Origin: Gammaproteobacteria bacterium
GTDB lineage: Bacteria; Pseudomonadota; Gammaproteobacteria; JABABF01
Direction of reading: 5' to 3'
Assembly (NCBI GenBank): GCA_965237805.1
Contig: OZ250153.1
Span: 1,333,816 to 1,397,815, forward strand
DNA length: 64,000 bases
Under the pieces are notes generated by a model that was not told where the DNA came from, ran no database searches, and saw only the letters and a list, made by a program, of their open reading frames with translations. The position numbers and the translations under genes are program-made. Each line of letters starts with the position of its first letter. Position 1 is the first letter of the stretch. Shown piece after piece: positions 2,616 through 52,994 of the stretch.

Positions 2616-5600
2616 CTATGACGTGTCGCGCCTCAAGTGCCGCTTCCCACCATATCGCTGCACGCAATAGGTCACCAGCAACAACAAGATGAGCAATGCC
2701 CAAGGGTCTATCACGCCACCACCATTTGGCACTGGGGGAGGTGTATCCGCCGTTTGCACGGCCACGGTGCCCGGATCGGCCACTTGCCCATTTTGAAAGC
2801 CATCGGCATCATTGGGGCCACCGTCCACTAAAGTGAGGAGCAGGCAGTCCCGACCTGCGAGCAGCCCCGCACCATAGCTGCTGGCCTCATCCGGACCGGG
2901 GCAAATGCCGTTGGCGGCACTTGCCGATGCCAAGGCATCGGCTCCACTGTCGTCAAAGCGAGCCCAATTGCCAGCCCGATCTTGCTTGAGATAGAGGGCA
3001 TTTGAGGGAATGGGGGTGGATAGGGGCAGCACGACGCGGTAGACATCGCTGTCGCCGCCGAGCACTTCAAAGTCATAGACCGCGCTGCGATCGACAATGT
3101 TGAATGTGTCGCTGCCGACGCTCACGCTGCCACCGATCGTAGACAACGCCACGCTCGAGGCGGCTAGCTCGGCGCGCTCTCCCAGACGCAATTGGGTGCC
3201 CACAGGGGACTGTGCCATGCGTGCCTCGGCAGGGTCGGATGAAATGGGCTGCGCGTTGGGCACATCCACATAGTCGCTCGCGTCAGGCACGCCGTCCATG
3301 TCTTGATCTGATACGCGGTCATCGTCGAGCGCCACCACCTTGAAGCGTTCTGCAACGTGGATGCTGGCATTGTCTGCATCGGTAATGATCAGGCTCAGCA
3401 GATAGGTCTTGCCAAGCTCCAACGCGGCTGGCGAGAAAGCAAAGGATGCGGAATCGGAGCCGCTGGCTTGGCCACTGAACAGCGCGCTGCTTCGATTTGG
3501 CAGAGGGCCGTTCACCGCAAAGGCAAAGGACAGGGCATCCCCATCCGGGTCTCTTGCCTGCGCCCTGACATCGACCGTGCCAGCGTCACGTGCCACCTGC
3601 TTGGAGGTTGTGTTGGATTGGCTGAGCTGCAACCTGTGGAACGTGGGCTTTAGATTGGCAGCGCCCGTTGGCAACACGCTCACTGCATGATTGGCGTTGC
3701 GTGGGCTTAGCGCCACTTGGGAGCTGAGCCCACTGCTCAATAGCGACAGGCGCACGGTGGCGGCATTGCCATCGGATGGCGAGAAGCCCGCTTTGATATC
3801 GAAAGTGACTGCTCCCAAGTCGCCCTGCGATAGGGTGATGGTGTTTGGTGGCGAGACATTGACCACATCGCTAGCGGACATGTTGCTGGAAAGCGACAGC
3901 GCATACGGTATGGAAACCGGGTAGAACGGGGCATTGCCGCTCAACCGTACCGGCACTTCCACGCTGAGGTTGGCGCTTGATGTTGGAGCACCGACACGCT
4001 GACTAGGCGCAAAGGCAACCAGCGGATGGATGTCCACCACCGATTGCGCCGTACCGACATTGCCAACGGTATCTTGGGCGGTCCATGTGATCTGGTGGCG
4101 GCCAGACGGCAAACGCATGCGGGCTCCAGCGGCAAAAGACCGTGAAGGTTGCAATCTGTTGCTGGTTGTCCTCAATACGCCCGTGGGTTGCACCGTGCCA
4201 TCGCGGGCATCAGCGGCGGTGGCGGACACCACGGCTGCCGTCATGATGCCCTGCGCCGTGAGCGCGCGGTCTGTGGCGGTGATGACCGGGGCGATGGTGT
4301 CTTTGACCACCGTGGCATAAATGGAAGCTTGGCCAGTTTGCTCTACCGTTATGGTGACATCACCCTCGCCGAGGGCCGACAGATCAAGAGGGCCCGTGTC
4401 CCATGTCCCTGTAGCACAGCTAGGGGTGCCGGTTCTGGACTGACTGCCGAGGCTAATGGAGTAGCTTACTGCCCCCCCAGTTGCGCAAGACCCAGATAGG
4501 CTGTAGCTGGATTGATTGCCGCTATAGATTGCCAGTCGGCATGAGTTATCACATGTTAGGGCTGTAGATTGGTCAATCGTGACGGTGACCCCCGAGGAGC
4601 AGTTGTTGGAGGTGCTAGACTCCCCCATTACTGCATCCACACAAGCCCCGATGTAATAGGTGCTTGGTGTTGCCAATGGGGGGACATCGCATCGTGCGGA
4701 TTCAAGACTGGTGAGATTGGTGGCAACGCTAGATACCAAGTCTGTACACAATTCAGTGTCTGCTGTTGAAATGCTCGCATCAGTCGACCACAGGTAGCGC
4801 ATGATGGTCTCTGCTGCTCTTGTTGTGCCAACGTTCCGTGCTATGGCGTTGATGGTGATGCGATCACCCGCTGCCACGGTAGTGGGATCGACAGAGACGG
4901 AATCCACCGTCCAGTCGGGGGCTCCGCCAACAATGGCTACTCCTTGGGAACAATTGTTGCTGGTGTTCGATTCAACGTTCAATGTGTCCACACAGGCACC
5001 GACGTAATAGGTCGAGCCCGCTGTAACTGATGTCGGTGCTGGGCAGGTCGCAGTTTCAGGACTGGTCTCACCCGCAGCACGGCTTGTTACGCGGTCTGTA
5101 CACAATTCAGTATCTGCTGTTGAAATGCTCGTATCGGTGGACCACAGGTAGCGCATAGTGGTCTCCGCTGCCGTTGCTGTGCCCGAATTTCGTGCTATGG
5201 CCTTGATGGTGATGTTGTCTCCTGCAGCCGCGATAGTGGGATTGACCGAGACGGAATCCACCGTCCAGTCGGGGGCGCCGGCACCACTCGCCGAGAAGGT
5301 GGCTGATATGGATTGGTTGGATTGGATCGTCAGTTGACAGTTGCCCGTGCCAGAACACCCGCCGCCACTCCACCCTGACAAGCTGGAACCGGCATCTGGG
5401 GATCCCGAGAGTTGTATGGAGGTTCCAGCATCGTAGCCATAACAGTTGGTTCCGCAACTAACGCCAGCAGGCGTAGGCGTCACGGTGCCGTTGCCAATGG
5501 CAGTCAGCGTTAATGTATAACGAGCGTTTATGGCCGCGTCATAACTCGCCAAACTGCTTGCGGCGTTCGTCCCGGTGTATACCACAAAATGCAAATGGTT

Positions 5601-8294
5601 GGCGGCACCAGTGGCGGTGCCAGACACATTGGAAATTTCGCCTATCTTTTGCCCTTTGGACACGCCGTCTCCATTACTGACTGCCTTATTCTCCATATGG
5701 AGGTATCCGCTCCACCAATAAGACCCGCTGGAGCCGTGCTTAATTAAGACTTGTCCATTTGTCCCGTCCGTGTTCAGCGAACCCCCGTAAGAGGTCTCAA
5801 CGACACCGTCTGCAACGGCATAAACGGGCATGCCATCATCAGAGTCATGGCTGGGGCAATTCAGGTTGGTATCCCAAGCATAGGTGTCATTGGCCTGCCC
5901 AATTCCACCCGTGCTTGAATGCCCGGGAAGTTGATGCTGATTAAAGCACCACGATGATCTTCCGTTAGCGCAACTGTTATCACAGGCTGCCAATGTGGTC
6001 ACAACATGGAGGTCGCCGTAGACTGGTGATGAGACGGATGACGGAGCACTATTAGGAGGGATGATCACCGGCACCCCCGGGGAGCAGTTGTTTAAGGTGC
6101 TGGACTCCCCGCTCACCGCTTCCACGCAGGCGCCGATGTAGTAGGTGGTGCCGCGCGTCGCCGACGAGGGCACCGTGCAGGTCTCGGATAAAGGGTCAGT
6201 CCCGCCAGCGGAGCGGCTTGACACGCTATCCGTGCACAACTGCATGTCGGATGGTGAAATCGTCGGGTCGTCGGACCAACGGTAGTGCATAGTGGTCCCC
6301 GCCGCCGCCGCCGTCCCCGAGTTCCTCGCCGTAGCGTAAATCGTGACCGACTGGCCCGGACCCACCGTGCTGGGGCTCACCAACACACTGTCCACCGTCC
6401 AGTCGGGGGCGCCGGCACCACTCGCCGAGAAGGTGGCTGATATGGATTGGTTGGATTGGATCGTCAGTTGACAGTTGCCCGTGCCAGAACACCCGCCGCC
6501 ACTCCACCCTGAAAAGCTGGAACCGGCATCTGGGGATCCCGAGAGTTGTATGGAGGTTCCAGCATCGTAGCCATAACAGTTGGTCCCGCAACTAACGCCA
6601 GCAGGCGTAGGCGTCACGGTGCCGTTGCCAATGGCAGTCAGCGTTAATGTATAACGAGCGTTTATGGCCGCGTCATAACTCACCAAACTGCTTGCGGAGT
6701 TCGTCCCGGTGTATACCACAAAATGCAAATGGTTGGCGGCACCAGTGGTGGTGCCAGACACATTGGAAATTTCGCCTATCTTTTGCCCTTTGGACACGCC
6801 GTCTCCATTACTGACTGCCTTATTCTCCATATGGAGGTATCCGCTCCACCAATAAGACCCGCTGGAGCCGTGCTTAATTAAGACTTGTCCATTTGTCCCG
6901 TCCGTGTTCAGCGAACCCCCGTAAGAGGTCTCAACGACACCGTCTGCAACGGCATAAACGGGCATGCCATCATCAGAGTCATGGCTGGGGCAATTCAGGT
7001 TGGTATCCCAAGCATAGGTGTCATTGGCCTGCCCAATTCCACCCGTGCTTGAATGCCCGGGAAGTTGATGCTGATTAAAGCACCACAATGATCTTCCGTT
7101 AGCGCAACTGTTATCACAGGCTGCCAATGTGGTCACAACATGGAGGTCGCCGTAGACTGGTGATGAGACGGATGACGGAGCACTATTAGGAGGGATGATC
7201 ACCGGCACCCCCGGGGAGCAGTTGTTTAAGGTGCTGGACTCCCCGCTCACCGCTTCCACGCAGGCGCCGATGTAGTAGGTGGTGCCGCGCGTCGCCGACG
7301 AGGGCACCGTGCAGGTCTCGGATAAAGGGTCAGTCCCGCCAGCGGAGCGGCTTGACACGCTATCCGTGCACAACTGCATGTCGGATGGTGAAATCGTCGG
7401 GTCGTCGGACCAACGGTAGTGCATAGTGGTCCCCGCCGCCGCCGCCGTCCCCGAGTTCCTCGCCGTAGCGTAAATCGTGACCGACTGGCCCGGACCCACC
7501 GTGCTGGGGCTCACCAACACACTGTCCACCGTCCAGTCGGGGGCGCCACTTTGATTTATTGTTACCCATGTGTATGTGTCACAATTGTTGTTTTTGTTGG
7601 ATTCCGTGCTTAGGAGACTTAAACAAGCCCCTATGTAGTACCGATCGCCTCGTATGACGCTTGAATCTATTGTGCACTTTGTGCTCAAAGAAAACGATTC
7701 TCCTGCTACACGGCTTGGTACATCGTCTGTACAAAGATCAAAATAATCGGTTGAACTTTTCTGCAAATAATATCTGATTGTTACGCCACGTGCAGGAGCT
7801 GCCCCTGCATTCCGCGCCGTAGCGTAAATAGTAATCCTGTCTCCTGGGTCTACGGAATTATCACTTACAGAAACTGAGTCACCAAGTGTCCAATCAGGGG
7901 TGCCATTATCGTGCAGCCATGTGAAGCTTGTTGAAGCTTCAGCAGACCAGCCTTCATAACTATTGGAACAATTCAGCTTGTCGCTGGGATTTATATTGCT
8001 ATCATCCCAACGAATTCGCCACCATTTATAAGTCGTGCCGGCCAAGTCCGCAGATGTAGGTCCTTTTGTTATTACCCCTGTTGCGCCATTGACTGCTTCG
8101 CATTGTTTGGTGCCCGCAGCTGTCCCCCGCACAGAAAGCCCTTGGCCATCGCTAAGATTAACAGTATCTGCTCCGGAATTCCTCACCACGATATGATCAT
8201 TGACTGCCAACGCCTGCGCCTCACCCATAGCAAAAAATTGCAGGCCGAACGCAACAAGTGCCAGCAACGTCATCTGGCGTATGTCATTTATCAT
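2616..8294 (-). CDS. Giant secreted multidomain protein (1892 aa): signal peptide, CARDB domains, 2x M23 (LytM-type) peptidase, 2x InlB-B-repeat-like, HYR, C-terminal GlyGly-CTERM-like anchor.
   Basis: Complete ORF. N-terminal signal peptide MTLLALVAFGLQFFAMGEAQA. CARDB end motifs (ESNTSNNCS, ESSTLNNCS). M23 motifs HDSDDGMPVYAVADG ... GYLHMENKAV ... HLHFVVY. GNGTVTPTPAGVSCGTNCYGY...FSGWSGGGCSGTGNCQL (InlB B-repeat-like). HYR-like DTIAPVITA...ITWTAQDTVGNVG. C-terminus PNGGGVIDPWALLILLLLVTYCVQRYGGKRHLRR. Confidence 0.85.
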   Translation of the reverse strand: MINDIRQMTLLALVAFGLQFFAMGEAQALAVNDHIVVRNSGADTVNLSDGQGLSVRGTAAGTKQCEAVNGATGVITKGPTSADLAGTTYKWWRIRWDDSNINPSDKLNCSNSYEGWSAEASTSFTWLHDNGTPDWTLGDSVSVSDNSVDPGDRITIYATARNAGAAPARGVTIRYYLQKSSTDYFDLCTDDVPSRVAGESFSLSTKCTIDSSVIRGDRYYIGACLSLLSTESNKNNNCDTYTWVTINQSGAPDWTVDSVLVSPSTVGPGQSVTIYATARNSGTAAAAGTTMHYRWSDDPTISPSDMQLCTDSVSSRSAGGTDPLSETCTVPSSATRGTTYYIGACVEAVSGESSTLNNCSPGVPVIIPPNSAPSSVSSPVYGDLHVVTTLAACDNSCANGRSLWCFNQHQLPGHSSTGGIGQANDTYAWDTNLNCPSHDSDDGMPVYAVADGVVETSYGGSLNTDGTNGQVLIKHGSSGSYWWSGYLHMENKAVSNGDGVSKGQKIGEISNVSGTTTGAANHLHFVVYTGTNSASSLVSYDAAINARYTLTLTAIGNGTVTPTPAGVSCGTNCYGYDAGTSIQLSGSPDAGSSFSGWSGGGCSGTGNCQLTIQSNQSISATFSASGAGAPDWTVDSVLVSPSTVGPGQSVTIYATARNSGTAAAAGTTMHYRWSDDPTISPSDMQLCTDSVSSRSAGGTDPLSETCTVPSSATRGTTYYIGACVEAVSGESSTLNNCSPGVPVIIPPNSAPSSVSSPVYGDLHVVTTLAACDNSCANGRSSWCFNQHQLPGHSSTGGIGQANDTYAWDTNLNCPSHDSDDGMPVYAVADGVVETSYGGSLNTDGTNGQVLIKHGSSGSYWWSGYLHMENKAVSNGDGVSKGQKIGEISNVSGTATGAANHLHFVVYTGTNAASSLASYDAAINARYTLTLTAIGNGTVTPTPAGVSCGTNCYGYDAGTSIQLSGSPDAGSSLSGWSGGGCSGTGNCQLTIQSNQSISATFSASGAGAPDWTVDSVSVNPTIAAAGDNITIKAIARNSGTATAAETTMRYLWSTDTSISTADTELCTDRVTSRAAGETSPETATCPAPTSVTAGSTYYVGACVDTLNVESNTSNNCSQGVAIVGGAPDWTVDSVSVDPTTVAAGDRITINAIARNVGTTRAAETIMRYLWSTDASISTADTELCTDLVSSVATNLTSLESARCDVPPLATPSTYYIGACVDAVMGESSTSNNCSSGVTVTIDQSTALTCDNSCRLAIYSGNQSSYSLSGSCATGGAVSYSISLGSQSRTGTPSCATGTWDTGPLDLSALGEGDVTITVEQTGQASIYATVVKDTIAPVITATDRALTAQGIMTAAVVSATAADARDGTVQPTGVLRTTSNRLQPSRSFAAGARMRLPSGRHQITWTAQDTVGNVGTAQSVVDIHPLVAFAPSQRVGAPTSSANLSVEVPVRLSGNAPFYPVSIPYALSLSSNMSASDVVNVSPPNTITLSQGDLGAVTFDIKAGFSPSDGNAATVRLSLLSSGLSSQVALSPRNANHAVSVLPTGAANLKPTFHRLQLSQSNTTSKQVARDAGTVDVRAQARDPDGDALSFAFAVNGPLPNRSSALFSGQASGSDSASFAFSPAALELGKTYLLSLIITDADNASIHVAERFKVVALDDDRVSDQDMDGVPDASDYVDVPNAQPISSDPAEARMAQSPVGTQLRLGERAELAASSVALSTIGGSVSVGSDTFNIVDRSAVYDFEVLGGDSDVYRVVLPLSTPIPSNALYLKQDRAGNWARFDDSGADALASASAANGICPGPDEASSYGAGLLAGRDCLLLTLVDGGPNDADGFQNGQVADPGTVAVQTADTPPPVPNGGGVIDPWALLILLLLVTYCVQRYGGKRHLRRDTS
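5277..7544 (-). repeat. Near-perfect tandem in-frame duplication (2 x 1134 bp = 378 aa each) inside the giant gene. Each copy carries CARDB, M23 peptidase and Ig-like repeat.
   Basis: Identical spurious plus ORFs at 5759..5944 and 6893..7078 (offset exactly 1134). Minus ORFs 5107..5457, 6226..6591 and 7360..7569 are near-identical. The two protein copies differ at about 5 residues. Confidence 0.85.
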
Positions 8295-8321
8295 ACACCC
8301 CCTCCCTTAAGAGGTGCATCA

Positions 8322-8933
8322 TCAACGCCACTTGTAGTGTGCTGATAATTGGAAGAACCGTAGCCTATCAAGCGATACGGCGACGAAGCCACAAGGAAGA
8401 CCAATTTCTGTGAACACGCAGACATCCAACCGGTCTTCTACATATTCAAAGTACTGGTACCGCATGTCTACGCCAATGGCGGAATCTGCTCCCATGGGGA
8501 CATCGATTCCCCCGAAGATCTGGATGCCACCAAGCAGCTTGTAATCATCGTCCAGCTTGACCTTGGAGCCGAATATAACTGCTTCATCTCTAATATCCAG
8601 CATTAGGCCGCCTCCACCACCCACATAGGTTTTGAACGGCAGGTCACCCAAAGGCAGGAAGAAGAAAGCATTGGCCATGAATTGAGGTGCGTGGAAATCG
8701 TCCCCACTCCAAAGATGGGCATACTCCAGTTCTATGCCCCACAACTCATCGAAAACTGTACCCAATGCCAGCCCCACGAAGCCACTATCACCAATCTCCA
8801 AAACCGGAACTTCCGTGGGCGAAGCTAGCCCTAGCGCGATTTTGGTATAGGCTTTGGTCTCTGCCTGTGCCAACGGCCCAAGCGTTGCCAGCAACAGCCC
8901 GGCCATGGCACAAAACAAAACACGAGCGCGCAT
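8322..8933 (-). CDS. Outer-membrane beta-barrel protein (OmpA/OmpW-like porin-family fold).
   Basis: Signal peptide MRARVLFCAMAGLLLATLGPLAQA (internal start of ORF 8322..8996). Alternating hydrophobic beta-strand pattern with aromatic-rich girdles. The C-terminus is not the canonical terminal F. Confidence 0.5.
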   Translation of the reverse strand: MRARVLFCAMAGLLLATLGPLAQAETKAYTKIALGLASPTEVPVLEIGDSGFVGLALGTVFDELWGIELEYAHLWSGDDFHAPQFMANAFFFLPLGDLPFKTYVGGGGGLMLDIRDEAVIFGSKVKLDDDYKLLGGIQIFGGIDVPMGADSAIGVDMRYQYFEYVEDRLDVCVFTEIGLPCGFVAVSLDRLRFFQLSAHYKWR

Positions 8934-8995
8934 ATGCCCGTGTCCGATCTGTTGGGCTTCATACGTGTCAATGTTCCTGGTGTTGCTCCTTGGCA

Positions 8996-9706
8996 TCAGT
9001 TGTCTTCGGCCACGAATTCGGCGGCACGACCCTGTAGAACAGCAGTAAGTGTTGGAGCCAAGGTGTCCATCACCTTGGTTGGCTTTTGAGGCGAGCCGTA
9101 ATCGGCAGAGAGAATGGCCAAAGTGTTCTCATGTGCCACATCGATCAAACGAACTGAAACGCTCGTGATGCCTATGTATTGCCCGCTAGCCGAGCTGAAT
9201 ATACCGAAGCCCACCTTCGAGCCTGTTTCCACAGTAAATTTTAAGACCGCGTCAGCGCCAGCTTGTTTGGCGACACGCAACATCGTGCGACTATCAGGAG
9301 CCTTGGCCGCCTCTTTTGGCAGATATTTTTCAAGATCGAACTGATCTAGAACCTCATAACCTGCCTTGGCAAGGGCGGCAACGGCACGGTTTTGCATCAT
9401 GCCTATGGATGAACTGCCGTGCTGGCCCCAAAAAACATGCTGGCCTTGCTGACCATCCCCACTCCCACTCGTGCTGGAGACCACTAAAAGCCGCTTGAAC
9501 TTTGCGACCCCCTGTGGGGAATAGTATTGAGTGGGAACTACTCGTATGTCCTTTCGCTCACCCAAAATTTTATCTGTGCCTGCTATAAGGCCAAGGAGTA
9601 TCAGATCAGCGCATCCCGAAAGCACAAGCCCAGATGCCAAGAGCGCACCAAGGAGATATGGTGGAAGTTTCCTTAGTTTTCTATTCGGGGGGGGGGGGGA
9701 TAACAT
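8996..9706 (-). CDS. Lipoprotein, possibly CsgG/LpoB/TolB-N-like fold. Gene carries an N-terminal homopolymeric tract.
   Basis: Internal start MLSPPPPNRKLRKLPPYLLGALLASGLVLSGC (lipobox LSGC) of ORF 8996..9949; the longer ORF would overlap the polA 3' end. The PPPP codons are encoded by a C13 run. Globular part has KRLLVVSSTSGSG, GADAVLKFTVE and VSVRLIDV patterns. Confidence 0.5.
   Translation of the reverse strand: MLSPPPPNRKLRKLPPYLLGALLASGLVLSGCADLILLGLIAGTDKILGERKDIRVVPTQYYSPQGVAKFKRLLVVSSTSGSGDGQQGQHVFWGQHGSSSIGMMQNRAVAALAKAGYEVLDQFDLEKYLPKEAAKAPDSRTMLRVAKQAGADAVLKFTVETGSKVGFGIFSSASGQYIGITSVSVRLIDVAHENTLAILSADYGSPQKPTKVMDTLAPTLTAVLQGRAAEFVAEDN
9686..9698 (-). repeat. 13-nt homopolymeric G/C tract inside codons 3-7 of the lipoprotein gene. 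Candidate slipped-strand phase-variation site.
   Basis: Plus strand G13 (about 9686-9698); minus strand reads ATG TTA TCC CCC CCC CCC CCG AAT. A +/-1 slip places a stop right after it (a 14-C reading gives ...GAA TAG). Confidence 0.6.
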
Positions 9707-9815
9707 TGCTGAGTATTCCTGTAACTGATTGGCGTTTCGGCTGGCTTCTGCTTGCCTATGCTGTCTGCACTGAACAGGCGCGAATCGCAACTGATGCAGG
9801 GGACGAACTAGCGAC

Positions 9816-9853
9816 ATCGTACCCCCCATCGCCCTAATGTCAACCCCCCCCCC
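9816..9853 (-). promoter_or_regulatory. Candidate sigma70 promoter of the lipoprotein gene, with homopolymers at and inside the -35/-10 spacer.
   Basis: Minus-strand sequence GGGGGGGGGG-TTGACA-ttagggcgatgggggg(16 nt)-TACGAT. -35 is consensus TTGACA; the spacer contains a G6 run; a G10 abuts -35. It lies between the polA stop (9894) and the lipoprotein ATG (9706). Confidence 0.4.
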
Positions 9854-9893
9854 AACATCCAAAAATCCTTCGCAACCAAGCCAAAGCCTCCCC

Positions 9894-12824: not shown

Positions 12825-13538
12825 TTGGCCGTGCTGCCCGCCTTTGGAGAATCAATTGTGATCGGTTTCCGGCGGGTGATGTCATGGTGTTCGCAATCTT
12901 TTATCGCCTCAGCTTTCCATTATCTGTACTATCATTCTTCCGACACATGGCAAAAAAATACTTTTCTCGGCTACCGTATTGCGCAGTGTCCACTGGATCT
13001 GCATCTCTACCAAGAGCTGGTCTATCGACTGCGCCCGGCGGCCATTATCCAAACCGGAGTGTTTGATGGGGGATCCATCCTCTATTTTGCTTCGCTGCTG
13101 GATCTGATGGGCATGCCTCCCAGCGCAGTGGTCTATGGTGTTGACATCGAACTTTCTGAGCGGGCGCGCAGTCTGAGTCACCCTCGGATCCGGTTGATCG
13201 AAGGGAATTCGGTTGATTCAGATTTGGTCGCGGACATCCGCGAAAATTTGCCGCCCGGAGATGTTTTGGTCTCTTTGGACTCTGATCACAGCAAAGCCCA
13301 TGTCGTGGCCGAGTTGGCCGCCTACAAGGATTTCGTCGGTGTCGGCTCTTATCTCGTCGTCGAGGACACGAATATTAACGGACACCCCGTCTTTGAATCT
13401 TTTGGGCCGGGTGGGGGGCCGTACGAGGCGGTGGCCGAGTTCTTGGTAGAGAACAAGAATTTCAAGCGTGACGATGCCTTGTGGAAGCGCAACAAGTTTT
13501 CCTTCCACCAATATGGTTGGCTCAAGCGGGTGCAGTAG
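12825..13538 (+). CDS. CmcI/cephalosporin-hydroxylase-family class I SAM-dependent methyltransferase (rhamnosyl O-methyltransferase-like).
   Basis: [55 protein letters not shown] ... YLVVEDTNI pattern typical of PF04989. Confidence 0.65.
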
Positions 13539-39830: not shown

Positions 39831-41201
39831 TCAGCCCGGCAAGTCCAGCAGCTCCAACAACTCCGCTGTTTTTGCGCGCATCAGTGCCGGGTCGCCGCGA
39901 CTTTCCACATTGAGCCGTACCAGCGGCTCGGTGTTGGAGCCACGCAGATTGAAGCGCCACTCTGCAAAGGCCATGCTGAGGCCATCGGTGGTGTCGATTT
40001 CCGGGTGCTCGGCCTGCTCGGTATAGTGTTTGCGCACCCACCGTAGCGTCTCGGCCACATCCGCTACCTGCCGGTTGATCTCACCGCTGACTGGAAAGCG
40101 GCGCACCCTCTGTGCCACCAGTTCGGACAGCCGCTGGCCGCTACGGCTGAGCAGTTCGGCGACCGCCAGCCATGGCAGCATGCCGCTGTCGCAATAGGCG
40201 AAATCGCGGAAGTAATGGTGCGCACTCATCTCGCCGCCGTAGACTGCATCTTCGCGGCGCATCACCTCCTTGATGAAGGCGTGCCCGGCACGCGATTGCA
40301 CGGCGCGACCGCCGTGCGCCGCCACTATTTCGCGGGTATTCCAGATCAATCTGGGGTCGTGCACTACCGCCGAGCCGGGGGACGCAGCGCGACGCAGAAA
40401 GGTTTCGGCCAGCGCGCCGACCAAGTAGTAGCCCTCGATAAATTCGCCGTGCTCGTCAAAGAAAAAGCAGCGGTCAAAATCGCCGTCCCAAGCAAGGCCA
40501 AAATCGGCGCCGCTAGCGCGCACAGCACGAGCAGTGTCGCCGCGCAGCTCGGGCAGCATGGGGTTGGGTACGCCGTGCGGAAAGCGACCGTCCGCTTCAT
40601 GGTGCAGGCGGACAAATTGAAACGGCAGCGATGGGGCGAGCTGATCAATGATCGCGCCAGCACCGCCGTTGCCAGCATTGACGACGATTTTAAAAGGGCG
40701 TAGCACATCGATGTCGATGGAGCCGAGCAGGCATGCGAGATAGCTTGGGCGGTGGTCCAGTGGTGCACTCGTACCCGGGGTCGCTACTGGTGGCGGGATG
40801 CGTTTTTCGGCGATGCGATCGCGCAGCTCGAATAGCCCGGTGTCAGCGCTGATGGGGCGCGATCTGGCAGCGACGACTTTCATGCCATTGTCCTCGGGCG
40901 GGTTGTGGCTAGCGGTGATCATCACGCCGCCATCAAGTGCCAAGTCGGCGACCGCCCAGTAGATCTCTTCAGTGCCGCACAGCCCGAGCAAGGACACATT
41001 GCAGCCCGCCTCGTTGAGGCCAGCACTCAATGCGCGGCACAAGGCCGGGCTGCTGAGGCGCACATCGTGCCCGACCACGACTTGACTGGCATTGAGGAAA
41101 TTGGCGAGGCAGCGGCCGAACTGATGTGCGAGTCCCTCGTCCAATTGGTCGGGGACGCGGCCCCGCACATCGTAGGCTTTGAAGCAGTCTAGGGAGGCCA
41201 A
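39831..41201 (-). CDS. Phosphomannomutase/phosphoglucomutase (AlgC/ManB family).
   Basis: Active-site ITASHNPPEDNGMKV; Mg loop GLAWDGDFDR. Confidence 0.9.
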   Translation of the reverse strand: MASLDCFKAYDVRGRVPDQLDEGLAHQFGRCLANFLNASQVVVGHDVRLSSPALCRALSAGLNEAGCNVSLLGLCGTEEIYWAVADLALDGGVMITASHNPPEDNGMKVVAARSRPISADTGLFELRDRIAEKRIPPPVATPGTSAPLDHRPSYLACLLGSIDIDVLRPFKIVVNAGNGGAGAIIDQLAPSLPFQFVRLHHEADGRFPHGVPNPMLPELRGDTARAVRASGADFGLAWDGDFDRCFFFDEHGEFIEGYYLVGALAETFLRRAASPGSAVVHDPRLIWNTREIVAAHGGRAVQSRAGHAFIKEVMRREDAVYGGEMSAHHYFRDFAYCDSGMLPWLAVAELLSRSGQRLSELVAQRVRRFPVSGEINRQVADVAETLRWVRKHYTEQAEHPEIDTTDGLSMAFAEWRFNLRGSNTEPLVRLNVESRGDPALMRAKTAELLELLDLPG

Positions 41202-41210
41202 TGGGGGGGG

Positions 41211-42065
41211 CTAGTCGGCACTTTGGCCGTGACAGTGATTGACTGCGGCGACAAAGCCTGCCACCTCGCCGCAATCGAAGCGTTGTCCTTGCAGCTGCCA
41301 CGCGATCAGGCGTCCCTGCCGTGCCTGTTCGCGCAGCGCGTCGCTCAGTTGCAGCTCGCCGCCGTGCCCCGGCGCGGTGCCCCTGAGTATCTCGAAAATA
41401 TCTGGCGTCAATAGGTAGCGGCCGATTACCCCGCAGTCGCTCGGAGCCTCGCCGAGAGGCGGCTTCTCGATCACATCGCTCACTTGTAATAGCTGGTCTT
41501 CGCCCGCTATCGGCGCGGCCTCGATGACGCCGAAGCGGGGCAGTTCCTCCGCGGGCAGCTGCTCCACTGCGAGCACGCTGCATTGGCCGCCGTATTGTTG
41601 AAAGATGGAGACCATTTGTTTCATGGCACCGTGCTGCCCCGGCGGTGCGATGCACAAATCGTCAGCCAAGATCACGCCGAAGGGCTGGTCGCCGATCAAC
41701 GGGCGACCGCTCAGCACGGCATCGCCTAAGCCGAGTCGCCGACGTTGGCGGATGAAACTGAATGTGCAGTTCTTGAGAATGTGCCGCAAACTGGCCAGCA
41801 GATCCTCGCGCTCCGAGTCCCGGATCTGCTCGGCCAACTCGACGGTATCGGCATCAAAATAATCGGTGATCGCCTCTTTGCCACGACTGGTGACGATACC
41901 GATATCAGACAGCCCGGCTTCGAGCGCTTCCTCGACCCCATAGTGCGCCAGCGGTTTGTTGACGATGGGCAGCATTTCCTTGGGGATGGTTTTGGTGGCC
42001 GGCAAGAATCGGGTGCCAAAACCTGCCATCGGAAACAGGCATTTGTTGAGTTGCTCCGCACTCAT
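41211..42065 (-). CDS. galU: UTP--glucose-1-phosphate uridylyltransferase.
   Basis: KCLFPMAGFGTRFLPATKTIPKEMLPIVNKPL N-terminal NTP-transferase motif. Confidence 0.9.
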   Translation of the reverse strand: MSAEQLNKCLFPMAGFGTRFLPATKTIPKEMLPIVNKPLAHYGVEEALEAGLSDIGIVTSRGKEAITDYFDADTVELAEQIRDSEREDLLASLRHILKNCTFSFIRQRRRLGLGDAVLSGRPLIGDQPFGVILADDLCIAPPGQHGAMKQMVSIFQQYGGQCSVLAVEQLPAEELPRFGVIEAAPIAGEDQLLQVSDVIEKPPLGEAPSDCGVIGRYLLTPDIFEILRGTAPGHGGELQLSDALREQARQGRLIAWQLQGQRFDCGEVAGFVAAVNHCHGQSAD

Positions 42066-50361: not shown

Positions 50362-50409
50362 GTGGGAGCTCGCACTAGGCGGGACTGTGTAAAGATGTGG
50401 GGTGGCAAC

Positions 50410-51690
50410 TTAGTCTGTGTTTTGTGTGTTTTCTAGAGCCCGTGCTTTGTCGAAATCAGCGCTTGCCTTGTCGTGTTGCCCCAAGCTGTTATAGGCCGCG
50501 CCGCGATTGCGATAGATTGCCGCATTATTTGGGTCTAGTTCAATGGCCAGATCAAAATCTTCAATTGCGTCTTCATATTTCTCCAATTTCATTTTTGCAG
50601 TGCCGCGATTGTTATAGCTTGCCGCATCATTCGGGTCTAGTTCAATGGCTCGATCATAATCTTCAATCGCGTCTTCATATTCCCCTAATTTCACTTTTGC
50701 ATCGCCACGATTGCGATATGCCGAATTCCTGGGGTCTAGTTTAATGGACTGATCATAATCTTCAATCGCGTCTTTATATTTCCCCAATTCAAATTTTGCA
50801 TAGCCGCGCTGTCGATAGCTTTCCGAATCATTCGGGTCTAGTTCAATGGCCCGATCATAATCTTCAATCGCGTCTTTATATTCCCCAAATTTCACTTTTG
50901 AATACGCCGCGATTGTGATAGATTGCCAAATTCTTTGGGTCTAGTTTAATGGACTGATCATAATCTTCAATCGCGTCTTCATATTTCCCCAATTTCACTT
51001 TTGCATAGCCGCGATTGTGATAGCTTGCCGCATTCATTTGGGTCTAGTTTAATGGCTGATCATAATCTTCAATTGCGTCTTCATATTTCCCCAATTTCAC
51101 TTTTGCATAGCCGCGATTGTGATAGCTTGCCGAATTCTTTGGGTCTAGTTTAATGGCTGATCATAATCTTCAATCGCGTCTTCATGTTGATCCAACTGTC
51201 TTCTTGCATAGCCGCGATTGCGATAGGCAGTCGCATTATTCTGGTCTAGTGCAATGGCTTTATTGTATCGCAATATGGCTTCTTCATATTTGCCTTGTTG
51301 ACTAGATTCAATACCTCTTTTTATGAAAAAATCTGCTGATGGTGTGCGCACCTTGTACCACCTTGCATAGCCATGAGGGTCAGGGAATAATTTGGTTGCT
51401 TCAATGCCATAATAGTTTTCTAATCGATCTAATATACGCTGCTTTGATGCTTTATCTATCAGTACACTTTGGCCGGCCGCCCCAAGCGCCTTGGGATCTT
51501 CAGGCCAGCCCAATATGAAGTAAGAATCTTGCGCTTTGGTTCTATCCGTCAAATGTTGGCTCTTCCATTTGTACCACTCCGGAGGCATTGATGGCATGGA
51601 AGTTCTGCTCTCCTCTGAGGCTGGTGGCTTGACCTTAATCAACTCATCCAGACGCGCCTTCTCGCCGTTGTTCAGCGCATCATGGCTCAA
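50410..51690 (-). pseudogene. TPR-repeat protein gene in a low-GC islet, broken by frameshifts inside the repeat array.
   Basis: ORFs 51145..51690 (N-domain + first TPR) and 50410..50895 (TPR array, DAIEDYDRAIELDPN repeats) are separated by ~250 bp of degenerate TPR-coding repeats with no open frame. AT-rich compared with the flanks. Confidence 0.5.
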
Positions 51691-52139
51691 ATCATTAAAA
51701 ATAGTTTGGCTGGTGTCAAGTGCTACGATTTTCCCGTGTGCGCCTTGCTGTTTTCTTGCCCTGGAAGGTTGCCTGTGCTACAGGAAAACCACAAGGCGGT
51801 TAGTGGGTTTCAGCTAAAATCTATCAGCATTGTGCGGGCGTGATCATGTTGTAAGTTGGCCATTAATTCCAAGTCAGATAGTCGGCGTGTCCGGCCTATT
51901 TCATCATACAATCTCTCCCTTGCCCCCTCGAGTAGAGCATCTAATTTTTGACTATAAATAGCATGTATGTTTGGGTTGTCATGATCATCGTCATCTATCT
52001 CCCTATAGACTGCAGATGACAAGTCAAAGGCTTCATCGTGCAAGCCACGATACACACAGGAACTGTAGTCTTCAAAAGACAAGCTTTCAACCCAATCGAC
52101 AAACTCACTAACATCGCTAATGATCGGCTGATCACCCAT
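51691..52139 (-). pseudogene. FRG-domain protein gene interrupted by an in-frame TGA and downstream stops.
   Basis: ORF 51810..52139 has VYRGLHDEAFDLSSAVYR and LQHDHARTMLIDFS, matching the FRG consensus (fRGq...L.Ps..R ... aQHyGlPTrLLDwT). After the TGA the same frame continues NPLTALWFSCS (consensus sPlvALyFA), then further stops. Confidence 0.45.
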
Positions 52140-52172
52140 CGCTTCTGATCACTCTTGCCAGTTGCACTGTGC

Positions 52173-52994
52173 TCATTTTATACTCGCTGCCGCCAGCTGC
52201 GCCTCAGCGCATTCTCCCGCCAATCTCCGCTCGGCCAACTTGCAGTATTCTGCGGATATTTCCATCCCCAAATAATTGCGCCCGTGCCGGGCGGCCATGA
52301 CGCAGCTGGTGCCGCTACCACACATGGGATCCAGCACCATGGCACCCGGCTCGGTGAAGCACCGGATGAGATCCTCGGCCAATTTGTCCGGGAAGGTGGC
52401 CGGGTGCTCAGACTTCAGCCGGTTACCCTCGGTGTTGCTGGCAGCATAGCGCCATACGGTGCCTCGGCACTTTTCCGGCTGGACCGCCTTGGGTGCGATG
52501 TGCTTGAAACCGCCGCTTGTCAGCCGGTCTGTTCCGGTGTAGATCTTGCCTGCGTGCTTGCTCGGCACCAGCAAGTGCTGTTTATCAAAATACTTGGGCT
52601 TTTTGCCTTTTAGAAATAACAGGATGTACTCATGGTCGACGCGAAAGCGCGTGTTCCACCACGCACCGGGATTGCCGTGCCGGTAATAGATGCAACATTC
52701 AAACAGCCGCCAGCCCTGATGCTCGCACCAATCCACCGCCAGTTTAAAGCTGCTCAGCGATTTGGCGAAGTGCTTGGTGCTGTCGCCGATGACGACCGCG
52801 CAGATGCCGCCCTCTTTGCTGAGCCGGTATAAATTGCGCCCCAAGGCTTGAAAATCAACACGCCATTCCCCACGGTAGTTGCGCACTTCATCGTAGGGAG
52901 GCGAAAACAAGCTGAGATCGACCGACGCTGCTGGCAATGCGCTAGTCAATGGCACACAATCGCCGAGTAGGATGCGGTTTTTAGGGATTGTCAT
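52173..52994 (-). CDS. Beta-class DNA methyltransferase (N4-cytosine or N6-adenine); solitary.
   Basis: Motif IV DLSLFSPPYDE (SPPY). C-terminal motif I VLDPMCGSGTS. Order IV...I typical of beta-class amino-MTases. Confidence 0.8.
   Translation of the reverse strand: MTIPKNRILLGDCVPLTSALPAASVDLSLFSPPYDEVRNYRGEWRVDFQALGRNLYRLSKEGGICAVVIGDSTKHFAKSLSSFKLAVDWCEHQGWRLFECCIYYRHGNPGAWWNTRFRVDHEYILLFLKGKKPKYFDKQHLLVPSKHAGKIYTGTDRLTSGGFKHIAPKAVQPEKCRGTVWRYAASNTEGNRLKSEHPATFPDKLAEDLIRCFTEPGAMVLDPMCGSGTSCVMAARHGRNYLGMEISAEYCKLAERRLAGECAEAQLAAASIK

Follow-up and report, generated by a model that had tools for sequence, protein, structure and literature searches.

The window, the whole 64-kb stretch of DNA that was analysed, carries on its minus strand, next to polA, a lipoprotein gene followed by two further genes for secreted proteins. 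The lipoprotein gene (8996-9706) encodes 236 aa, and its ORF, its homologues and an AF2 model compared with Foldseek pointed to a PelC/LpoB/CsgG-like fold. The second gene, identified as an ORF (8322-8933), encodes a 203-aa secreted protein with the signal MRARVLFCAMAGLLLATLGPLAQA, possibly a small outer-membrane beta-barrel. The third gene (2616-8294), annotated by domain scans, encodes a secreted protein of 1892 aa. Upstream of the lipoprotein gene we predicted a sigma-70 promoter (9816-9843, minus strand) with 10 of 12 consensus matches, composed of TTGACA (9843-9838), a 16-nt spacer and TACGAT (9821-9816). A weak Shine-Dalgarno sequence, AGGA (9717-9720, minus strand), is placed 10 nt before the ATG at 9706. 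The start codon, the Shine-Dalgarno sequence and the promoter are predictions read from the sequence. Two homopolymers lie in this region. One is a run of 13 C on the coding strand (G13 on the plus strand) at 9687-9699, a candidate slippage site within codons 3-7 (S-P-P-P-P) of the lipoprotein gene. The other is a run of 10 G on the coding strand (C10 on the plus strand) at 9844-9853, which adjoins the predicted -35 hexamer directly.

The lipoprotein starts with a predicted signal, MLSPPPPNRKLRKLPPYLLGALLASGLVLSGC-ADL..., which has a charged n-region, a hydrophobic core and the lipobox LSGC, with the cysteine at residue 32 (9613-9611) and alanine at +2. The longest ORF, which is the database entry, starts from ATG 9949 and has 317 aa. 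It was rejected as the gene model because it overlaps the 3' end of polA, crosses the promoter and puts 81 residues before the signal peptide. The 236-aa protein was a singleton at 90% clustering among 5.8 billion sequences, and an exact-sequence database look-up returned zero records. An exhaustive HMMER search of 1.84 billion representatives found 16 remote relatives, seven of them at E < 1e-10, with identities of 25-45%. Of the 11 relatives that were read, 10 had a cysteine aligned with that of the lipobox and a short hydrophobic stretch after it; this cysteine was nearly invariant in the alignment. The window lipoprotein itself had no match in Pfam or NCBIfam, and a sequence profile search of the PDB was empty; among 12 relatives, four matched CsgG (best 1e-13) and three matched LpoB weakly. 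An AF2 model built on a 12-sequence alignment had a mean pLDDT of 76.6 and a confident core of 98 residues above 90. Its best Foldseek match among solved structures was the dodecameric lipoprotein PelC (E 1e-6, probability 1.0, TM on target 0.5-0.59), followed at lower rank by HpaA, CsgG, LpoB and the N-terminal domain of TolB. We regard the gene as genuine. Its homologues, the nearly invariant cysteine, the Pfam-positive relatives and the fold match indicate that the product is, as modelled, an outer-membrane lipoprotein of the PelC/LpoB/CsgG fold class; the family is uncharacterised. None of the 11 homologues read had an N-terminal proline run and none of the five homologue loci examined had a long homopolymer tract, so the C13 run is a lineage-specific addition.

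The longest ORF form of the second gene has 224 aa and starts from 8996, overlapping the lipoprotein stop. The protein matched OMP_b-brl (PF13505) at 18.8 bits (E 0.0019), below the cutoff of 28.7, had no homologues (singleton), and gave a single-sequence AF2 model with a pLDDT of 31, which was unusable. For these reasons the beta-barrel label is given here as plausible. We also found no sequence similarity of this gene to the barrel beside P0008 (L021), to an ORF fragment upstream of P0006 or to an ORF beside P0007. L021 carries, at 5421-7745, a remote lipoprotein homologue with a small OMP_b-brl gene before it and a Cas6 gene after it, and the pairing of the lipoprotein with a small barrel gene may recur in the family. 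The giant third protein contains two M23 peptidase domains, CARDB repeats, InlB-type B repeats and a C-terminal choice-of-anchor U domain. The gene is preceded by a strong ribosome-binding site of its own and may have a separate promoter. Within it (2616-8294, minus strand), a unit of about 378 aa comprising CARDB, M23 and B-repeat parts is duplicated in tandem, the two copies being nearly identical. The preliminary description of this DNA had read the three genes as a string of lipoprotein, outer-membrane barrel and giant surface protease. The order, the secretion and the M23 domains agreed with that reading, and the barrel part of it met with a sub-threshold match.

The uninterrupted G13 on the plus strand (9687-9699) is the longest homopolymer of the window. 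The second longest is the C10 at 9844-9853 (plus strand), 145 nt from it, and all others have at most 8 nt. By chance, base composition predicts 0.013 G/C runs of at least 13 nt per window and a first-order Markov model predicts 0.002; for runs of at least 10 nt the two values are 0.5 and 0.13. Across about 290 kb of unrelated loci, no G/C run exceeded 8 nt. It had been claimed earlier that a 13-nt homopolymer lies at 9686-9698 and that it is improbable by chance in a 65% GC genome. The run and its improbability were both borne out, while the coordinates were one base off and the GC content was too high: it is 59% for the window and about 52-54% for the lipoprotein locus, and reaches about 65% in the flanking polA. 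The lower GC content of the locus makes a chance G/C run less likely, not more. Among the shorter runs of the window, a G8 at 41203-41210 occupies the larger part of the 9 nt that separate a nucleotidyl-transferase gene (41211-42065, minus strand) from a phosphoglucomutase/phosphomannomutase gene (39831-41201, minus strand), which starts with TTG.

On the coding strand, the gene begins with ATG TTA, continues with TCC, three CCC codons and CCG, and goes on with AAT AGA AAA, which is translated to MLSPPPPNRKLRKLPPYLLGALLASGLVLSGC. This translation of the minus strand was identical to the one first proposed, in which the run directly follows the start of a lipoprotein (MLSPPPPNRK...LSGC). When lengths of 9 to 17 C were tested, only 10, 13 and 16 C were in frame, giving the full protein with three, four and five prolines. 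All other lengths led to a stop after 7-10 codons (MLSPP..E* or MLSPP..RIEN*). C14 gives MLSPPPPE* and C12 gives MLSPPPRIEN*, confirming that a slip by one base in either direction causes early termination. For lengths of 11, 12, 14 and 15, there was no rescuing ATG, GTG or TTG in the frame of the lipoprotein body upstream of the tract, and no alternative in-frame start was found between the run and the hydrophobic core. The C13 run is placed between the sole usable start codon (predicted ATG 9706) and the signal peptide. All elements of the on/off switch architecture suggested in the preliminary description are present, namely a long, pure and anomalous tract, the frame rule, the lack of a rescue start and an envelope product. 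The probability of encoding S-P-P-P as TCC CCC CCC CCC was 0.004-0.006 whether codon usage was taken from 27 core genes or from the three genes of the locus, and all six other proline runs of at least three residues among the genes of the window use mixed codons. Because the probability of this encoding is only about 0.5%, the homopolymer is a feature at the DNA level, not a by-product of the prolines.

The 90% cluster of PolA had one other member, on the ENA metagenome contig L001, the only close relative. Between 18110 and about 9722, L001 and the window agreed at 99.5% identity; past 9722 the similarity collapsed. The ATG follows this break after 16 nt and the tract after about 23 nt, so that the ribosome-binding site, the ATG and the run are all in the variable segment. 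In the alignment, the segment with no L001 counterpart (7182-9722, minus strand) comprises the ribosome-binding site, the lipoprotein gene, the barrel gene and the 5' part of the giant gene. L001 has neither the lipoprotein gene nor the barrel gene; its promoter and leader lead directly into a gene for a 1279-aa M23/CARDB protein. Compared with the giant of the window, this protein is strongly mosaic: its M23 part is 56-66% identical in amino acids, and the 3' part of the gene is 93.6% identical in nucleotides. Since L001 lacks both genes and the giant proteins are mosaic, the lipoprotein-barrel cassette is strain-specific and of lower GC content, within a recombining surface-protein locus. 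A degenerate 5' end of the gene after the ATG in L001 ('CCCTCCAAACCAC...GAAAACT') was considered and dropped, as the local alignment gave p = 0.13-0.19. A mobile-element origin of the cassette was also rejected, with no convincing flanking direct repeats and no plasmid match. Scans of JGI metagenomes for the tract flanks with 8-22 nt between them, and for the conserved leader, gave no match. A genome scan with PolA gave only an 80%-identical MAG, whose contig ends within polA.

Outside the promoter block, a single homopolymer indel separates the window and L001 over the 8.4 kb, at 13419 (6 versus 7 C on the minus strand). It lies within a CmcI-like methyltransferase ORF (12825-13538, plus strand) and may be a real frameshift or a consensus error. 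Elsewhere in the window, a low-GC patch (50400-52200, about 45-50%) with TPR-repeat ORFs adjoins an N6/N4 DNA methylase gene (52173-52994, minus strand) and may be a foreign insertion. A pilus- or secretion-type cluster with T2SSF, a T2SSE ATPase and a secretin is located at 23152-28958 (minus strand).

The G10 run had been overlooked in the preliminary description, as had the inverted repeat that it forms with C13, and the two leave room for readings besides a simple switch by the coding tract. In L001 the counterpart of G10 is an interrupted G6CG5, as seen in one related contig in which an assembly error is possible. Both promoter hexamers are kept in L001, with a spacer of 17 nt there and 16 nt in the window, where the spacer contains G6. 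The promoter block (9800-9870; L001 8230-8315) holds, within 70 nt, 12 of the 46 differences between the two strains over 8.4 kb, and the 79-nt leader that follows (9722-9800) is 100% identical. A known RNA element in this conserved leader was rejected, with no Rfam match and an ordinary leader fold (z = -0.9). No terminator was predicted between polA and the predicted promoter. A G-quadruplex-type motif with four G3+ runs on the non-template strand (9822-9853, minus strand), one of eight in the window, spans the -35 box and the spacer.

The upstream arm of the inverted repeat, G10-TTGACATT (9836-9853, minus strand), contains the -35 box, and the downstream arm, AATGTTAT-C10 (9690-9707, minus strand), contains the start codon. 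The arms of 18 nt are complementary at 16 positions (89%) and are separated by 128 nt, enclosing the -10 box, the leader and the ribosome-binding site. The 8-nt inner flanks beyond the homopolymers match at six of eight positions (P ~0.006). In the predicted fold of an RNA reading through from polA, the arms and the AUG are paired, with -72.1 kcal/mol against a shuffle mean of -63.2 (z = -2.1). A domain scan of 34 ORFs across the window, all but a few of those it carries, gave no recombinase or invertase.

The reading that we favour, to which we give an about even chance, is that the C13 run is a hypermutable simple-sequence repeat acting as a frameshift on/off switch for the PelC/LpoB-like outer-membrane lipoprotein. 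During replication, slipped-strand mispairing would add or remove one base at high frequency. Because of this frequent gain and loss, a clonal population would always carry a reversible minority of OFF (or ON) cells. The early stop would probably also lower the expression of the downstream barrel gene through polarity; the giant gene has the strong ribosome-binding site and the possible promoter mentioned above. RNA-polymerase slippage and +1 ribosomal slippage at CCC-C are known processes, and would make OFF states such as C14 leaky. The G10 at the -35 box may provide a second, graded control of the rheostat type over the predicted promoter.

G/C runs of at least 9 nt are a validated class of phase-variable tracts in Neisseria and other bacteria. 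PhasomeIt calls G/C tracts from 9 nt upwards, and the genic poly-G/poly-C tracts of Neisseria pilC, lgtA, lgtG, nalP and pglA have 9-21 nt (PMC5953494). The C13 run is above this threshold and in the middle of the known range. A strain-variable, low-GC and surface-related locus is the usual setting of contingency genes. We concluded that the locus is a credible candidate for a contingency locus, which partly supports the interpretation in the preliminary description. Against this reading stands that, to our knowledge, contingency loci are little documented in environmental, fairly GC-rich gammaproteobacteria.

A slippery tract may exist without being selected for, and the tract could be a non-adaptive scar at the junction where recombination or a template switch placed the lipoprotein and barrel genes behind the promoter. 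It might, for example, be an inverted copy of the G-tract/-35 segment, which would also be the source of the ATG. The run would then slip without selection, in a gene heading to fixation or loss. We consider this unlikely. Several observations would fit it: homology with L001 ends at about 9722, which leaves only 16 nt to the ATG and about 23 nt to the tract; the 18 nt around the start codon match the complement of the G10/-35 segment at 16 positions, with six of eight (P ~0.006) in the inner flanks; the homologues have ordinary N-termini; and the cassette is known from one genome only, both genes being singletons. However, the tract as assembled is pure and in frame, whereas an unselected 13-nt run should quickly leave the frame or gain interruptions, as in the G6CG5 of L001, and the eight further nucleotides of the repeat are too few to demonstrate copying. 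The same break, lying about 23 nt before the run and not at it, speaks against a chimeric join. Such a join, or a run that was assembled artefactually or mis-sized (shorter, longer or interrupted), would make the frame logic wrong for the living cell. A long-read consensus is least reliable at long homopolymers, the contig of origin (1.7 Mb, metagenome-type) probably comes from long reads, and homopolymer-type indels separate the two assemblies at 13419 and in the promoter block. Nevertheless, outside that block there is only one such indel in the 8.4 kb common to two independent assemblies, and polA is intact with 932 aa in both. Furthermore, a ribosome-binding site with an ATG and a complete signal peptide are in frame across the run, which would be unlikely at a chimeric join. 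We therefore hold an error of the assembly to be improbable.

The two runs could also belong to one structured element. In a read-through RNA, G10-UGACAUU would pair with AAUGUUA-C10 and bury the start codon, with the consequence that translation would occur only from transcripts of the local promoter, not from polA read-through; alternatively, the runs would form a DNA cruciform or a G-quadruplex, or flank a 128-bp promoter inversion. Two such improbable runs less than 170 nt apart, the 16/18 inverted repeat with 128 nt between its arms, the predicted fold that pairs the arms and the AUG (z = -2.1 against shuffles), the lack of a predicted terminator from polA to the promoter, and the G-quadruplex-type motif over the -35 box and spacer would all fit this explanation. 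We nevertheless assign it a low probability. The element is not conserved: L001 keeps the promoter and the leader without the C run and with an interrupted G run, so that covariation support is lacking. There was no Rfam match, and the leader alone folds ordinarily (z = -0.9). Homopolymer repeats are not among known invertase sites. As the 34 window ORFs scanned contained no recombinase, an inverton was rejected as a candidate and is kept solely as a low-probability rival. A broader combination, in which C13 and G10 form one bipartite element, an 18-nt inverted repeat around promoter, leader and start codon, that couples a promoter rheostat, a coding switch and a start-masking RNA helix, cruciform or G-quadruplex, born by inverted copying of the promoter tract when the lipoprotein and barrel genes were captured, seems improbable to us as well. 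Finally, the run might act as a peptide. Ribosome stalling at polyproline is established, and four consecutive prolines after the start (SPPPP at residues 3-7) would stall ribosomes and make the synthesis dependent on elongation factor P. This is very improbable, as a proline stretch needs no homopolymer, the encoding has a probability of about 0.5%, the other proline runs use mixed codons, and the homologues are without the motif.

Phase variation through slippery repeats is documented mainly in host-adapted pathogens. If the frameshift switch at C13 is verified, it would point to the same bet-hedging logic outside infection, in a free-living uncultured gammaproteobacterium. It would also open a way to study an uncharacterised lipoprotein family, whose member here heads a surface locus that varies between strains. 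If true, the switch could be of use against phage or grazers that target surface structures.

The lipoprotein resembles PelC, LpoB and CsgG in having a lipobox followed by an alpha/beta domain, but its sequence identity to PelC is only 11-15%. The pel, curli and PBP1B genes are absent from its vicinity, where the neighbours are polA, the small putative barrel and the M23/CARDB giant. In the promoter region, the locus resembles invertible promoters such as fimS and the Bacteroides invertons in that inverted repeats surround a short promoter segment before a surface-protein operon. It differs from them in that homopolymer makes up most of each arm, the arms themselves include the -35 box and the ATG, the scanned ORFs contain no invertase, and the repeat is missing from the sister strain L001.

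Poly-C/G promoter tracts, 10-14 nt long as in fetA, are also carried by Neisseria porA and opc and by Bordetella fim. In Neisseria, the fetA tract belongs to the promoter of an outer-membrane protein gene (PMC5953494). The runs in these promoters are located between -35 and -10 and alter the spacing, whereas the G10 described here is upstream of -35. Helicobacter pylori sabA also carries a CT repeat in its coding region. Its promoter T-tract beside -35 works as a rheostat, as do T- and A-tracts adjacent to -35 elements in this species (PMC4081817). As in sabA, our locus has two repeats for one surface-protein gene, one at -35 and one in the 5' coding region; here the tracts are G and C instead of T and CT, they are mutually complementary and form an inverted repeat, and the promoter is a predicted one.

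The closest comparison for the coding tract is given by Neisseria pilC, lgtA, lgtG, nalP and pglA. The pilC run is located in the region of the signal peptide. In contrast to these genes, the candidate comes from an uncultured, fairly GC-rich environmental gammaproteobacterium and is present in one genome only, its product belongs to an uncharacterised PelC/LpoB-like family, and its switching is a prediction. What it shares with them is an uninterrupted G/C run within the ORF, of which every third length is ON and the rest lead to an early stop, and a product of the surface or envelope.
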